DNA of 64,000 nt from assembly GCA_017559445.1 (NCBI GenBank), contig JAFYSJ010000003.1:1913-65912 (forward strand), written 5' to 3'. Below are positions 2 to 5,858 of this stretch, piece after piece. The DNA comes from Clostridia bacterium (lineage in GTDB: Bacteria; Bacillota; Clostridia; RGIG7378). Within the stretch, counting starts at the first letter, position 1; every line of letters starts with the position of its first letter. The translations under genes and the position numbers were made by a program. Below the pieces are notes generated by a model. That model was not told the origin of the DNA, made no database searches, and saw nothing but the letters and a program-made list of their open reading frames with translations.

Positions 2-3000
2 ACGAGAATTAGTGTTACATATACACATACAGGAACAAGTCAGGCAAGAATTTATCCATATTTGGTTTTGAATGGAAATGGAACTATATATATTGATTCA
101 CTTCAGTTAGAGGAGAGCAAGACAGCTACAAGATTTAACATAGTCAGAAACAGCGATTTTGCTAGTTCTAATACAAGCTCTGGTATATTGGGATGGGATC
201 TTTCTGATTCCACCAGAATAAGTAGAGTAAATATATCTTCAGCCACAGACACTTTGGATAACAATGTAATCAAGATGGAAGGAGATCCTAATAGCCGTGC
301 ATATGCATCTCAGGAGATTAGTATTTCCGGCAAAAGTGGAGATACATTTGTAGTATCAGCTTGGGCTAAGGCAGATTCTGCACGATTAGGTGAAGTACAA
401 ACTTATGCACAAGATAGAATGTTTGGAATAAAGGTGCAGCTTTATAATAATAGTAACCTAATAAGTCAGGATATCTTCTCCTTTAATCCAGATATAGACT
501 CTACTAACAATTGGCAATATTTAGCTGAAGAGGTAAAAGTAAATGGAACAGTTACCTCTATTAAAATAACTCTTCTTTACGACTTTAACCTTAATACTGC
601 ATATTTTGACGGAATCCAAATATATAGGGAGAAGTTCGGTACAGAATACACATATAACACTGATGCAAACATAAGCCAGATTATTGATGCAAATGGAGGA
701 GAAACAACTTTAACCTATACTACACAGAATAAAAACAACATAGAGACTGTTAAACTTCCGGACAAAACAGAGTATGGATATGTATACAATGCGTATAACC
801 AAGTAATAAAGGAAACAACACCAGAGGGCATAGTATATTCCTATGTTTATGATGACTATGGCAATAATATAAAGTCCTTTGTAGGAACAACATCAAATCC
901 AAAGCAAATAGGCATTGAAGCACAGTATACTTTTAATGGTGAGTATTTGTCTTGGATTACAGATACCGTAGGAAATAAGACTAGATATGGATATGATACG
1001 GCTACAGGACGTCTTATATGGGTTCAGTATCCTAATGATACAACCTCTACTAGAACTGAATACAAGTATGATTCTAGAGGAAGACTTGTGTCTACATCTA
1101 AATCTAATGGAACGGCTACGCTAAAGGAGACAAATGCTTATTCAGAGGGAATGTTAAGCGTGCTAACTCATACAGGACAATCTGCTACAGATGATACAGA
1201 CTATTCATTCTTGTATAACAATTGTGACCTCATAAGTAGTGTAAAGGTTGGTTCTAGAACATTAGCATCTTACACCTACAATAACGCATATGAGAAGCAG
1301 CTAACAACCCTCGTATATGGTAATGGTCATAGCATTAATTATGTTTACGATGAGCACGGAAGGACATCTAGTATAACATATGGTTCAAATGGCAATTCAG
1401 GTCTTACATATACCTATGATCAGGAAGGTAGACTTTCTGAGGTTACAGATTCGGATGCTGCTACTATTACGAAGTATGTTTATGACGAAACAGGTAGATT
1501 AGAAAAATATAGGATAACTTCTGGAAACAATGTTTTGTATCAGGAGGAGTATAGCTATAACCAACTGAATAATGTAACTGGCATAAAAGCCATTGTAAAT
1601 GATAAGTTTTTAATCTCAAATTATAGTTATAACGACAATAATGTATTGACTGAAATTGCAGAAACTTTTGGTTCTAATTCTATATCACAAAGACAGGTTT
1701 ATGCTTATGATACTCTTGGTAGATTGGCAACTATTTATTCTAAAGAGGGTGCCACGAATGTAGTGACTACAAGTTTGGATTACAAAGCACCGAATAATAG
1801 TCATGCAAGCAGCATGCTTGTATCTACTACAACTGTAGTATCACAGTGGATTAATACCTATGGTGGAACAACATCTAGCTATTATTATGAATACGATGGT
1901 AATGGCAATATTACTGAGATATCTCCTGATAATGTGTTTAATGATGGGGATGGTGTGGAATTCCAATATGATTCCATAAATCAGTTAACTAGAGTAAATG
2001 ATAAAATAAATAACGAGACATGGGTTTATACTTATGACTTAGGTGGCAATATAACCTCTAAGAAGAGATATGCATATACAACAGGCACCTTGGGCTCTGT
2101 ATTAGAAACCGTATCCTACTCTTATACAGATAGCAGCTGGGCAGACTTGCTTACATCTTATAATGGCAAGTCGATAACTTATGATGCAATAGGCAACACG
2201 TTAAGTGATGGCACGTGGACTTATACATGGGCGCGTGGCAGACAGCTAGCAAGTCAAAATGACGGCACAACAACATGGTCTTATACATACGATGCAACTG
2301 GTCAAAGACTTACTAAATCTAATGGAACACTTACATATCACTATATCTATAACGATATGCAGTTAATGTATATGAAGGTGAAAAATGGTTCTACTGTAGT
2401 ATGTGAGATGTATTTCCAGTATGGACAGCTTGGCCTCATGGCCATACAATATATTAGTAGTAGCTTGACAGACACATACTATGTAGTAACTAATGCTCAG
2501 GGTGATGTTGTTGCTCTGGTTGATGGTAGTGGAACAAAGGTTGTCGAATATACCTACGACGCATGGGGTAAGTTAACAAACATGACAGGCTCTAAGGTTG
2601 GCACAGTAGGTAAGTATAACCCCATCCGCTACAGAGATTATGTCTACGATACAGAAACACAGCTGTATTATCTCAACACTAGATACTACAATCCTGATAT
2701 GTGCAGGTTTATTAATGCAGATGGCTATGCAAGTACAGGAGATGAGCTTACAGGATCTAATATGTTTGCGTACTGTGCAAATAATCCTGTGAATATGACC
2801 GATCCAACAGGTGAGTTGCCAGATTGGGCAAATAAATGGATTGCTATTGTTACGGTAGCTACTGTTGTAGCTGTAGCTACGACAATAACAGTTATGACCT
2901 ATGGAGCAGGTTCTGTTGCTGGTGTTGCGATGATAAGTGCTACATTAACTTTATTAGCAAAAACAACCGAAGTCGCCGTGTTGCAAGTAAAAAAAGGGGT

Positions 3001-3307
3001 ATTGGAGGAAGATGATAGTAATCAAATCACACAAGATACAATTGAAGCAATTTATGATAACGGCTTGAAAATAATAGGTTTTACCCCTTTCACCAAGACA
3101 GTAGGAATAGGAGCTAATCATTTTTTAACAGCAACGGTTGTTAAGGATTTTGGAGGAATTCAGACATTGAATCAAACACTACAATCAACTGGTGGTAAGG
3201 CAATGCCTTATGCATTTGCTGCGATTGCGTGGGTAAACACAATTAATTCTGCATTTTCTAATGATCCTGAAAGTAGAGCTAAGTCAAGAGGATATGTATT
3301 AAAATGA
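2..3307 (+). CDS. RHS/YD-repeat polymorphic toxin (WapA-like), 5'-truncated by the window
   Basis: Frame is open from base 2, so the track start at 62 is not the real start. Many YD/YTYD repeats; RHS core end YYLNTRYYNPDMCRFINAD...NMFAYCANNPVNMTDPTG, then a 164-aa variable tip (2813-3307). Confidence 0.93.
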   Translation, partial: TRISVTYTHTGTSQARIYPYLVLNGNGTIYIDSLQLEESKTATRFNIVRNSDFASSNTSSGILGWDLSDSTRISRVNISSATDTLDNNVIKMEGDPNSRAYASQEISISGKSGDTFVVSAWAKADSARLGEVQTYAQDRMFGIKVQLYNNSNLISQDIFSFNPDIDSTNNWQYLAEEVKVNGTVTSIKITLLYDFNLNTAYFDGIQIYREKFGTEYTYNTDANISQIIDANGGETTLTYTTQNKNNIETVKLPDKTEYGYVYNAYNQVIKETTPEGIVYSYVYDDYGNNIKSFVGTTSNPKQIGIEAQYTFNGEYLSWITDTVGNKTRYGYDTATGRLIWVQYPNDTTSTRTEYKYDSRGRLVSTSKSNGTATLKETNAYSEGMLSVLTHTGQSATDDTDYSFLYNNCDLISSVKVGSRTLASYTYNNAYEKQLTTLVYGNGHSINYVYDEHGRTSSITYGSNGNSGLTYTYDQEGRLSEVTDSDAATITKYVYDETGRLEKYRITSGNNVLYQEEYSYNQLNNVTGIKAIVNDKFLISNYSYNDNNVLTEIAETFGSNSISQRQVYAYDTLGRLATIYSKEGATNVVTTSLDYKAPNNSHASSMLVSTTTVVSQWINTYGGTTSSYYYEYDGNGNITEISPDNVFNDGDGVEFQYDSINQLTRVNDKINNETWVYTYDLGGNITSKKRYAYTTGTLGSVLETVSYSYTDSSWADLLTSYNGKSITYDAIGNTLSDGTWTYTWARGRQLASQNDGTTTWSYTYDATGQRLTKSNGTLTYHYIYNDMQLMYMKVKNGSTVVCEMYFQYGQLGLMAIQYISSSLTDTYYVVTNAQGDVVALVDGSGTKVVEYTYDAWGKLTNMTGSKVGTVGKYNPIRYRDYVYDTETQLYYLNTRYYNPDMCRFINADGYASTGDELTGSNMFAYCANNPVNMTDPTGELPDWANKWIAIVTVATVVAVATTITVMTYGAGSVAGVAMISATLTLLAKTTEVAVLQVKKGVLEEDDSNQITQDTIEAIYDNGLKIIGFTPFTKTVGIGANHFLTATVVKDFGGIQTLNQTLQSTGGKAMPYAFAAIAWVNTINSAFSNDPESRAKSRGYVLK

Positions 3308-3534
3308 AGGAAGTATTAAGAGAAGTTGTAAAAATAGTATATGCAATATTGAGTGGAGGGGCAGCTTTAGTAGTTATTCTTAGCATAATATGCGAACTTG
3401 TAGGTGTTGCAAAGTATGAAAAACTTTTGAGCATATTGGGTATTTCAAATGGCTTTGAGAAAACTTTCATTTTTTCTGGAATTATAGTATTCCTTTGGAT
3501 AATGTCCTATATGATAAAAAATAAAATGGGATAA
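3304..3534 (+). CDS. Small two-TM protein, putative immunity protein of the RHS tip
   Basis: 76 aa, two hydrophobic segments; start overlaps the RHS stop (ATGA coupling); canonical immunity position. Confidence 0.65.
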   Translation: MKEVLREVVKIVYAILSGGAALVVILSIICELVGVAKYEKLLSILGISNGFEKTFIFSGIIVFLWIMSYMIKNKMG

Positions 3535-3810
3535 ATAAAGGAAGAAAATGGACTGCGGCGAAAATACGTCCCCCGCTATGGTAGCCAGTACGGTAGGTAT
3601 TTAACTGATCCAGGAACTTCTATCAATCAATTGGCATTAACTCCGGAAAATTCGTGTAATTTAACTTCCTATGTGGTAAATCGACCGTTTACTTTTAGAA
3701 CGGGAGTTGTTGACTCTTGTGCATGGGGGCCTGGTGGCGGTGTTCAGTACTTTTCTTGGATGTCTGTTCAACGATTGGTGCAATTTGGATTTTTGACACC
3801 ACTAGGATGA
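3535..3810 (+). pseudogene. Start-less orphan toxin tip, TNT/DUF4237-like NAD(P)+ glycohydrolase domain
   Basis: Manual translation: ...YVPRYGSQYGRYLTDPGTSINQLALTPENSCNLTSYVVNRPFTFRTGVVDSCAWGPGGGVQYFSWMSVQRLVQFGFLTPLG*. It carries the TNT motifs RYG-x3-G-x-Y and GGGxQY. An in-frame stop lies at 3532-3534 and there is no ATG before the domain. Confidence 0.75.
3549..3564 (+). repeat. 16-bp direct repeat TGGACTGCGGCGAAAA, copy 1
   Basis: Identical to 4468-4483; lies at the junction just before the TNT fragment. Confidence 0.85.
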
Positions 3811-3826
3811 GAGGGAGGTAACTATA

Positions 3827-4279
3827 ATGAAACAAATTAACATATGGGAGTATCTCATGCTTGACTCGTTTGATGTTGAAATGCCTTTTTCAAAATCAAA
3901 AACAGAGTTTATTAGTTATTCCCGTAAAAACAATATTCCAATAGACATACCTACTGAAATGCAAATTGTTGTCAAATCAAAATTACTGTTTCTTGATGTT
4001 GATTTTTTCATTTCATTTCAATTTAACGGGGAGAGATTAATTGCTATAACGATATCTCCTAATACAACAGTAGAAGGTAAAACTTTGGACTGTCGTTATA
4101 AAAAAATACAAAAAGCTTTAGAAAACGAATTAGGGTATCCTCATAATCGATTGAGGTCAATTATGAATTTGTTAGATCCTGATAATCGTTTATCGTATTG
4201 GAAGAAAGATGGGATTAAAATTGAACATTATCTTCTGAATCGGTTTGGAATGGAAGAAATCATTAACATTACATTATGA
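3827..4279 (+). CDS. Hypothetical protein, putative immunity protein of the orphan TNT tip
   Basis: 150-aa soluble ORF with SD GGAGG, 16 nt after the TNT fragment stop. Confidence 0.6.
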   Translation: MKQINIWEYLMLDSFDVEMPFSKSKTEFISYSRKNNIPIDIPTEMQIVVKSKLLFLDVDFFISFQFNGERLIAITISPNTTVEGKTLDCRYKKIQKALENELGYPHNRLRSIMNLLDPDNRLSYWKKDGIKIEHYLLNRFGMEEIINITL

Positions 4280-4313
4280 GCACGGTTTAAAATACACTAT
4301 CCCAGCAAGCATC

Positions 4314-4384
4314 GCGTTTGGTCACCCAAACGCAGACTTGTCAGGAATATTCCTGAAACCTTTAAAGGCTTGGGACTTTCCCAA
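4314..4384. repeat. Cluster of four closely spaced inverted repeats
   Basis: GCGTTTGG-tcac-CCAAACGC (4314-4333), TCAGGAATATTCCTGA (4341-4356), CCTTTAAAGG (4359-4368), TTGGGA-ctt-TCCCAA (4370-4384). Confidence 0.7.
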
Positions 4385-4396
4385 CAACCTGTCTTC

Positions 4397-4467
4397 AGCT
4401 ATTATTATGAATACGATGATAATGGCAATATTACTGAAATATCTCCTGATAATGTGTTTAATGATGG
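4397..4467 (+). repeat. 71-bp copy of the RHS core (1877-1947)
   Basis: 69/71 identical by manual alignment; encodes SYYYEYDDNGNITEISPDNVFNDG. Confidence 0.92.
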
Positions 4468-4483
4468 TGGACTGCGGCGAAAA
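4468..4483 (+). repeat. 16-bp direct repeat TGGACTGCGGCGAAAA, copy 2
   Basis: Begins exactly where identity with the RHS core ends. Confidence 0.85.
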
Positions 4484-4682
4484 CAGGTAACACCCCCTAT
4501 ACTACCATATGGGTATAGGCATTGAACCGCAATAATCTCATAGGGAGTAGTGTATAATCTAAGCAGAACAGCTAGAGACTTGTGTCAATGCGGTGAGAGA
4601 TGTTGAGAAACACATACCATCCACGTATCATACACCTAAATATACGGCATACAATTTAATAGAAAAACAAAGGCAGGCAAAT

Positions 4683-5858
4683 ATGACCAAGTTACTAAAG
4701 GGAGTTTTGACTGTCTTTTTTGTTGCCCTTCTTTTGACAGGATGTGGAGCGGAAGAGGACACAATCAAGATTGGCATAATATCTCCAAATACAGGGGCTC
4801 TAATGGTGTATGGCCAGTCCATGACAGACGCATATAAAATGGCCGTGGATGAGATTAACAAGTCGGGCGGAGTCTGTGGACGACAACTGGAGTTGGTCAT
4901 TAAGGACGACAAAATGGAGGCCACAGAGACGGTTAATTGTATGAACTCTCTTGTGGCAGACCAGGTGGGTCTGGTTATTGGTTCTGTTACATCTGCCTGT
5001 ACTGCTGCTATTACAGATATAGCGAACCAAGAAGAGGTTATTTTGCTTACACCCACAGCTACAGAGGACAGCATTGCAGGAGGAGATGACTTCGTATTTA
5101 GGGTGTGCTTTGCAGATAGTTTCCAAGGAGCAATTGCAGCAAAGTGTGCAAAGGGAATGGGATATTCCGAGGTTGGAGTCCTTTATTGTGCCTCTGACGC
5201 CTATTCCAAGGGTATATATAACGCCTTTGTTAAGGCTTGTGAAATTTTAGACTTACAAATAGTAGATGTGGAAACAGTGGCAGATGTAGCCTTGACCCAG
5301 GACTACTCCAATCAGTGGTCTGCCTTGGCCAGATCTCAAGTAGGATATGTCTTTGCACCCTTTTATTACTACACCGTAGGTCCATATCTGGTGCATCAGG
5401 CAAGGCAAGCTGGGTTCCAAGGGATCATAATGGGAGGAGATGGGTACGATGGCGCCAATGGTCTCCAATACCAGACAGGAGATTTGTCTGACTTTAATAA
5501 TGTGCTTTTTATTAACCACTATTTCCCTGGAGAAGGCAAGGGAGCAGACTTTTCACAGAAATTCATAGAACTTTATGGATATTTCCCAGATGCGTTCACA
5601 GCCCTAGCATACGATTCAGTCTATGTTTTGGCAGATGCCATAGAGAGAGCAGGGTCCTGGGAGCCATCTAAGGTAAGAGAAGCCTTGGGAGATGTGGATT
5701 ACAGATATTCCTGCGTTACAGGTGATTTTGCCTTTGACAGAACAGGTACTCCAATTAAGGGAGCAGTTATTGTGGAGTATATTTTTAACCCATTGAATCT
5801 AGAGGAAAACAAGGTGGAAACTAGACTTCGTGGAAGAATAACCGTAGGGGAGCAGTAA
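4683..5858 (+). CDS. livK: Branched-chain amino acid ABC transporter substrate-binding lipoprotein
   Basis: Lipobox LLTGC, IKIGIISPNTG, PTAT, ALAYDSVY; ATG at 4683 preferred because the signal peptide starts there. Confidence 0.88.
   Translation: MTKLLKGVLTVFFVALLLTGCGAEEDTIKIGIISPNTGALMVYGQSMTDAYKMAVDEINKSGGVCGRQLELVIKDDKMEATETVNCMNSLVADQVGLVIGSVTSACTAAITDIANQEEVILLTPTATEDSIAGGDDFVFRVCFADSFQGAIAAKCAKGMGYSEVGVLYCASDAYSKGIYNAFVKACEILDLQIVDVETVADVALTQDYSNQWSALARSQVGYVFAPFYYYTVGPYLVHQARQAGFQGIIMGGDGYDGANGLQYQTGDLSDFNNVLFINHYFPGEGKGADFSQKFIELYGYFPDAFTALAYDSVYVLADAIERAGSWEPSKVREALGDVDYRYSCVTGDFAFDRTGTPIKGAVIVEYIFNPLNLEENKVETRLRGRITVGEQ

Follow-up and report, generated by a model that had tools for sequence, protein, structure and literature searches.

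A probable decayed orphan toxin-immunity module with an intact candidate immunity gene against TNT-type NADases in a Clostridia Rhs locus

The DNA directly downstream of the main rhs gene in a small Clostridia genome very probably holds a decayed orphan toxin-immunity module of an Rhs polymorphic-toxin locus, in which the toxin has been reduced to a dead stub of the TNT type while the immunity gene behind it is intact. The source genome is a MAG of 1.68 Mb in 40 contigs (C numbers), and the stretch studied, referred to as the window, comprises 64,000 nucleotides and corresponds to C35:1913-65912. The arrangement of the locus is familiar from other systems and in itself ordinary; what is new is the family to which the 150-aa immunity candidate belongs. 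The closest named relatives of the rhs/TNT locus (loci are given L numbers) come from MAGs assigned to the Acutalibacteraceae, Eubacteriales and Oscillospiraceae. Coordinates of the features within the window are collected in Table 1.

Table 1. Features of the Rhs locus and of the remnants on its 3' side, in window coordinates
Feature	Position	Strand	Evidence or remark
Main rhs gene, 3' 1101 codons	2..3307	+	RHS_repeat, E=9e-28; full ORF is 1008-5219 of L002 (the contig C35 locus)
76-aa ORF with two TM segments, presumed immunity partner of the main rhs tip	3304..3534	+	Overlaps the rhs stop; homologous tip and 77-aa pair in L003 13382-14154
IS3-family left terminal inverted repeat (IRL), first 21 nt	3549..3569	+	Reads 'GLRRKY' in the toxin frame; nhmmer IRL positions 1-21
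TNT-type NAD+ glycohydrolase tip remnant, last 78 codons and stop	3574..3810	+	Pfam TNT; no start codon, no RBS
150-aa gene, candidate cognate immunity protein of the TNT clade	3827..4279	+	12-16 nt after the TNT stop in relatives
Long-stem hairpin element, 5' two-thirds of ~135 nt	4298..4395	+	93% identical to L003 16218-16315 and L030 6473-6569
rhs mid-core piece, 71 nt	4397..4467	+	69/71 identical to 1877-1947; left over from another rhs gene or orphan
IS3-family solo left end (IRL), 56 nt	4468..4523	+	nhmmer E=1.2e-16, model 1-56; borders the liv operon

The window opens inside the main rhs gene, which starts 904 nt upstream of it, encodes 1403 aa in full and ends in a DPTG junction and a hydrophobic tip. 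The 76-aa ORF that overlaps its stop is the presumed immunity partner of this tip. Farther upstream, at L002 740-1010 (about 900-1170 nt before the window), the main rhs gene is apparently split by a frameshift: an N-terminal rhs ORF with CBM96 and DUF6531 domains stops at 753, and reading resumes in another frame into the 1403-aa ORF, which reflects either a pseudogene or an assembly error. A long Ala/Val/Gly-rich hydrophobic helical stretch directly follows the DPxG cleavage motif both in the main tip (window 2813-3307) and in the TNT tips of L003, L029 and L030. Its recurrence suggests a shared membrane-insertion or translocation segment placed upstream of differing toxin domains.

Beyond the 76-aa gene lies an open frame of 91 codons (3535-3810) between a TAA (3532-3534) and a TGA (3808-3810), with the translation IKEENGLRRKYVPRYGSQYGRY...GPGGGVQY...LTPLG. 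No ATG or GTG occurs within this frame and no Shine-Dalgarno sequence stands at its head; the sole internal start, a TTG at 3631, comes after the RYG motif. The first-pass annotation had described a start-less frame with TNT motifs followed 16 nt later by a 150-aa gene with its own Shine-Dalgarno sequence, and had taken the two for an orphan module downstream of an rhs gene; both descriptions were confirmed, with the module lying 3' of the 1403-aa rhs gene and its 76-aa partner. The same annotation had assigned the frame to the TNT family and proposed a profile search as a check. That search matched Pfam TNT (PF14021) with E=1.1e-16 and 61.5 bits against a cut-off of 27, over profile positions 8-86 of 88, and returned the stub as the only TNT match in the whole genome. 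An intact tip from a relative also matched solved TNT-domain NADases (8r17, E=1.4e-7; AfNADase, 6yge, E=8.5e-4). When aligned to AfNADase via this intact relative, the stub was found to keep the catalytic Arg (RYGS), the aromatic Tyr (GRYL) and the Gln (GGGVQY). In AfNADase, loss of R129, F137 or Q194 inactivated the enzyme (PMC7955114).

The frame had been read as toxin throughout, which holds for residues 14-91, where homology to intact TNT tips runs from 3573 onward, but not for the first 13 codons, which consist of the junction and IS3 inverted-repeat DNA. At the breakpoint, relatives have ...LEPGTTLD-RYGS where the window has ...GLRRKYVP-RYGS. The idea that 'GLRRK' is an original part of the toxin or of the Rhs core was rejected, as intact relatives have 'LEPGTTLD' at that place. 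The stub is 91-92% identical in DNA to the L029 and L030 tips and 79% to that of L003, and from the Arg codon on its amino acid identity to L029 and L030 is 94%. A complete seven-stranded TNT palm is not present: the match begins at profile position 8, and the conserved Asp (AfNADase D128) is missing. In an AlphaFold model of the L030 tip, which has a pLDDT of 57 overall and is usable for the TNT palm only (pLDDT 75-91), strands 217-221 and 226-230 precede or include R229, and the window fragment begins at the R229 equivalent. According to this model, the stub lacks strand 1 and about half to most of strand 2 of the palm. It is also without the pre-toxin region, the Rhs core and any export part.

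What remains of the toxin frame is well preserved, with 0 stops, 0 frameshifts, a dN/dS of 0.11-0.19 against intact relatives, and window-specific changes amounting to 1 non-synonymous and 3 synonymous substitutions. As far as its sequence tells, the stub is most probably a dead, non-functional NADase remnant because the start, the RBS and fold strands are missing, and not through mutational decay, of which there is no excess of damaging changes; the truncation looks recent because neither stops nor frameshifts are found. We give almost no credence to the proposal that the frame is still translated, through read-through of the TAA at 3532-3534 or from the TTG at 3631, into a small NADase or a regulator. 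While the 76-aa ORF and the TNT frame share one reading frame with a single TAA between them, and the TNT frame keeps the catalytic R, Y and Q and has no internal stops, a shared frame is a one-in-three chance and was judged a coincidence of the IS-mediated junction, the DNA ahead of the TNT frame being accidental IS sequence. There was no sign of a code change or of recoding. Of the seven strands of the palm, a read-through product would be missing the first and half of the second, and a product initiated at TTG 3631 would also be without the RYG...GRY motif.

The cuts that produced this stub are marked by the ends of an insertion sequence. The 16-mer TGGACTGCGGCGAAAA occurs at both 3549 and 4468, and 10 copies were counted genome-wide (6 exact and 4 with one mismatch), as compared to 0 for a control. 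These copies extend to a consensus of ~57 nt, and nhmmer located about 19 IRL-type copies in the genome. Two of the copies mark the ends of insertion sequences. At C28:113148-113720 an RBS and orfA come directly after the repeat, which has its inverted partner at the far end, making this an internally deleted IS; C38:1-1244 is a near-complete IS with orfA and a frameshifted orfB and ends in 5'-TG...CA-3'. OrfB contains HTH_21 (E=4e-13), rve (E=2e-27) and rve_2 domains. The imperfect 5'-TG...CA-3' terminal repeats, the two overlapping ORFs and the DDE/rve OrfB that define IS3 elements are all found in the C38 and C28 copies, and the element with left ends at 3549 and 4468 belongs to the IS3 family. 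The genome's element shares with IS3-family insertion sequences the orfA/orfB organization, the HTH_21 and rve domains and the TG...CA ends, whereas the window retains left-end remnants only, the right ends having been deleted at both sites. Three other readings of the 16-nt direct repeat were considered before this identification and did not fit by inspection: a core for site-specific recombination, a dif-like site, and a promoter of the sigma-70, sigma-54 or ECF type. The genome-wide occurrence of the repeat and the IS copies identify it as the IS3 left end. An imperfect palindrome at 4496-4519 (CCATATGG core), at the liv boundary, lies inside the IS3 left inverted repeat, and it is not a liv operator because it is conserved in both IS ends.

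Insertion 14 nt past the 76-aa gene followed by one rightward deletion would be the simplest history of the upstream cut, because the IRL has its outer end towards the 76-aa gene. A false join through the repeated IS end would make the arrangement an artefact of MAG assembly instead, and several features invite this suspicion: the genome is a MAG in 40 contigs, other contigs end within the multi-copy IS, and L013, a contig from a sister strain, ends within the TNT stub. A single assembly covers the upstream junction at 3549-3573, L013 beginning at 3668. We nevertheless regard a false join as highly improbable. The 21 nt of IS at the junction are too short for a graph mis-join, and unique DNA lies next to them. 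In addition, L013, an independent contig that is 98% identical, contains everything from 3668 onward including the junctions at 4397-4523, which are thus identical in an independent sample.

Decay extends beyond the 150-aa gene, on the 3' side of which a hairpin piece, an rhs core piece, an IS end and the liv operon follow in this order. The full hairpin element has a 14-bp closing stem, three inner hairpins and an MFE of -60 kcal/mol; the window copy ends after ~97 nt and is the sole copy in the genome. The element recurs in either orientation between Rhs orphan-array modules on rumen and human-gut contigs, and is multi-copy in L033-L039. Individual copies lie at L030 6474-6598, L003 16212-16351, L035 1266-1392, 2837-2963 and 5109-5214, and L037 6404-6530 and 9135-9261. 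Rfam was searched with 3300-4750 and with the L030 hairpin element, and nothing rose above noise. At the equivalent place in L030, the hairpin element is followed by a large rhs gene.

The evidence linking the 150-aa protein to the toxin comes mainly from its setting in relatives. In 18 independent loci the TNT clade is constantly accompanied, on its downstream side, by a member of the 150-aa family. The gap from toxin stop to partner is 16 nt in the window and 12-16 nt in the eight loci with intact pairs, where an intact TNT tip is accompanied by a 150-aa homologue (L003-5, L029, L030 and L040-42). On the metagenome contigs L003, L004 and L005, ORFs of 213-288 aa comprise an Rhs core end (NNPVMGFDPYG), ~100 hydrophobic helical residues, a short linker and the TNT domain; this layout recurs in L029 (453 aa, Acutalibacteraceae MAG) and L030 (306 aa, Eubacteriales MAG), where the Pfam match covers TNT profile positions 1 to 86-87 of 88. 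In L003-5, L029 and L030 the homologue is found 15-16 nt past the intact tip. Truncated pairs are present in L013 and L032-39, and the toxin-less loci L014-17 have kept the last ~37 nt of the TNT gene ahead of the 150-aa homologue. Eleven metagenome loci were recovered with a TNT domain, and in every one of them the toxin stop is directly followed by a family member; L040-42 have it intact, L032 has it split and L033-39 have it cut down to 53 aa. The L040-42 toxins share 63% identity with the L030 tip used as query, their partners 28-30% with the window 150-aa protein. This pattern fits a cognate pair because the partner diverges faster than the toxin, as is usual for immunity proteins. In L033-L039, which are human gut metagenome contigs, the TNT clade is 73% identical and a 152-codon open frame is followed by the 53-aa immunity piece; these loci represent an independently decayed module in human-gut bacteria.

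The relatives also bear on where the toxin came from. Like orphan modules, the window module is found 3' of a main rhs-immunity pair and in the same orientation, with the toxin directly before the 150-aa gene; unlike them, it has no Rhs core up to DPxG, of which relatives keep 20-300 aa. The first-pass annotation had supposed that the strain or an ancestor once fielded an RHS-borne tip, and this found no positive support: the relatives read carry the TNT tip on orphan-sized ORFs of 204-526 aa (122-526 aa across the loci recovered) and none on a complete Rhs protein, as judged from a tip-carrier search that spanned 0.55-1.75x the query length and from relative contigs several of which are short, so that a full-length carrier may exist. 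It had also proposed looking for relatives with the tip fused to the RHS core; those read keep 20-300 aa of core, and a complete Rhs carrier was absent among them.

The 150-aa ORF starts 16 nt past the TGA of the stub, with GGGAGG 8 nt upstream of its ATG. Its product has no signal peptide or TM segment in its sequence and is predicted to be cytoplasmic. The gene has a dN/dS of 0.12-0.36, which indicates purifying selection. No promoter-like site was found on the + strand from the rhs stop to the 150-aa gene and no terminator-like site in 2700-4750; expression by read-through from the rhs transcript is plausible, because no terminator-like site separates the two genes. A total of 75 clusters of homologues at 50-99% identity was recovered, and an HMM search of 1.84 billion representatives yielded 90 members of the family at E<=1e-3, while a scan of GTDB species genomes yielded only 3 loci with the family. 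Its range so far comprises gut and rumen Oscillospirales-type Clostridia only (about 90 clusters at 50% identity).

No Pfam, NCBIfam or PADLOC HMM matched the window 150-aa protein, and 55 diverse family members searched against Pfam gave just three isolated, spurious matches. A phmmer search against all PDB chains gave 0 matches at E<=10. The AlphaFold (AF2) model of the protein has a pLDDT of 89.9 and a pTM of 0.84, and a Foldseek search with it found no neighbour in the PDB (best E=0.096, TM<=0.28); against BFVD, matches at TM~0.5 were to uncharacterised phage proteins only and were uninformative. The protein is not IFT-like because it has neither a sequence match nor a fold neighbour in the PDB. 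The earlier impression that it stands outside recognised immunity families was thus upheld by the Pfam, NCBIfam, PADLOC and PDB searches, and the 18 loci add a constant association with the TNT clade.

A protein with no recognised immunity domain, many of whose family members are encoded far from any toxin, might instead be another passenger of Rhs arrays, such as a tip chaperone or adaptor, or a hitch-hiking small gene. We consider this unlikely. Where a TNT toxin is present, the family always lies directly 3' of it at a gap of 12-16 nt, the canonical immunity position; the partner diverges faster than the toxin; the protein is cytoplasmic by sequence; and persistence of the gene after toxin loss suits an antidote, not a chaperone. 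Toxin-less copies of the family are found in arrays, among small genes unrelated to one another. Many family members have no nearby toxin, and it is only for the TNT-linked subset that guilt by association is a strong argument. With immunity as the preferred function, we lean towards the view that the 150-aa family is a structurally new inhibitor class of TNT-fold NAD+ glycohydrolases, giving stand-alone protection in toxin-less strains.

From these observations we infer the following order of events. Behind the main rhs gene and the 76-aa partner there would once have stood an orphan cassette made up of an Rhs core end, a hydrophobic helical pre-toxin region, a TNT palm of ~95 aa and the immunity gene. 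An IS3-family element may then have inserted 14 nt past the 76-aa gene, and a rightward deletion would have removed the IS from nt 22 on, the Rhs core end and the pre-toxin region, as far as the Arg codon of the 'DRYG' motif in TNT. The 150-aa gene would have survived as an orphan immunity gene with its own Shine-Dalgarno sequence. A second IS copy and a further deletion would have erased the next rhs unit, leaving 71 nt of core and the 56-nt solo IS end. The 150-aa protein most likely binds and blocks TNT-type NADase tips from neighbouring strains.

Orphan rhs-CT/rhsI modules, as well as cdiA-CT/cdiI modules, are said to have been described downstream of main rhs genes in Enterobacteria by Poole et al. 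in 2011 and Koskiniemi et al. in 2014. The locus resembles these enterobacterial modules in having a toxin-tip fragment and an immunity gene 3' of the main rhs-immunity pair, in an immunity gene that outlasts its toxin, and in the module arrays of related loci. It differs in that the stub has lost the Rhs-core homology normally kept for recombination and in that an IS3 end marks the cut; the host, moreover, is a small-genome, rumen-type Clostridia MAG, whereas the known orphan modules come from a proteobacterium. The TNT domain of Mycobacterium tuberculosis CpnT and its partner IFT (Rv3902c; PDB 4QLP) form a TNT-type toxin-immunity pair. The stub shares with CpnT the PF14021 family and the Arg/aromatic/Gln triad, but the window toxin is a truncated interbacterial Rhs tip and the 150-aa protein is no relative of IFT (4QLP chain B).

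Two bacterial systems are closer in setting. Streptococcus intermedius TelB/TipB pairs an LXG type VII secretion NADase with an immunity protein (PMC5555719). The likeness to the window lies in a contact-dependent, TNT-like NADase toxin of a Firmicute with a small adjacent immunity protein, and the difference lies in the carrier, which is LXG/T7SS as opposed to Rhs; TipB was not recovered in searches with the 150-aa family. In Serratia marcescens SJC1036, Rhs1CT1036/RhsI1-1036 includes a TNT-like Rhs NADase for which the name 'Tne4' was proposed (PMC10539506). Common to this system and ours are a TNT/AfNADase-like palm as the Rhs C-terminal tip, a downstream immunity gene and an orphan immunity copy. 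The Serratia toxin is T6SS-delivered in a Gram-negative organism, while in the Clostridia tip a long stretch of hydrophobic helices separates DPxG from TNT. In Serratia, an orphan immunity gene against the TNT-like Rhs NADase was found experimentally to protect a toxin-less strain (PMC10539506). The same authors stress that, although NADase immunity proteins have no relationship to one another, each of them occludes the active site (PMC10539506). Because these other, unrelated immunity proteins act in this way, the 150-aa protein may occlude the active site as well.

The locus offers a clear example of how a polymorphic-toxin locus decays, with an IS beheading a spare toxin cassette and the antidote left intact and under selection. 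It fits the idea that orphan immunity genes serve as shields against the weapons of neighbours in dense gut communities. For a family that carried no annotation, a well-supported toxin-antidote pairing is now available and can be used to annotate about 90 clusters. The 150-aa family also presents structural biologists with a candidate new inhibitor of TNT-type NADases; if this holds true, the structure of a 150-aa/TNT complex could reveal a new way to block the TNT active site.

Many of the IS3 copies in the genome are solo left ends of ~57 nt; such ends are not confined to the window, and also occur at C14:17676-17732 (-) and C7:27403-27441 (+). In all 3 Rhs loci of the genome such ends lie directly after immunity-type genes, accounting for 4 of the about 19 copies within roughly 6 kb of 1.68 Mb. 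Either Rhs arrays are dispensable sinks for the IS, or the IS targets or reshapes Rhs loci.
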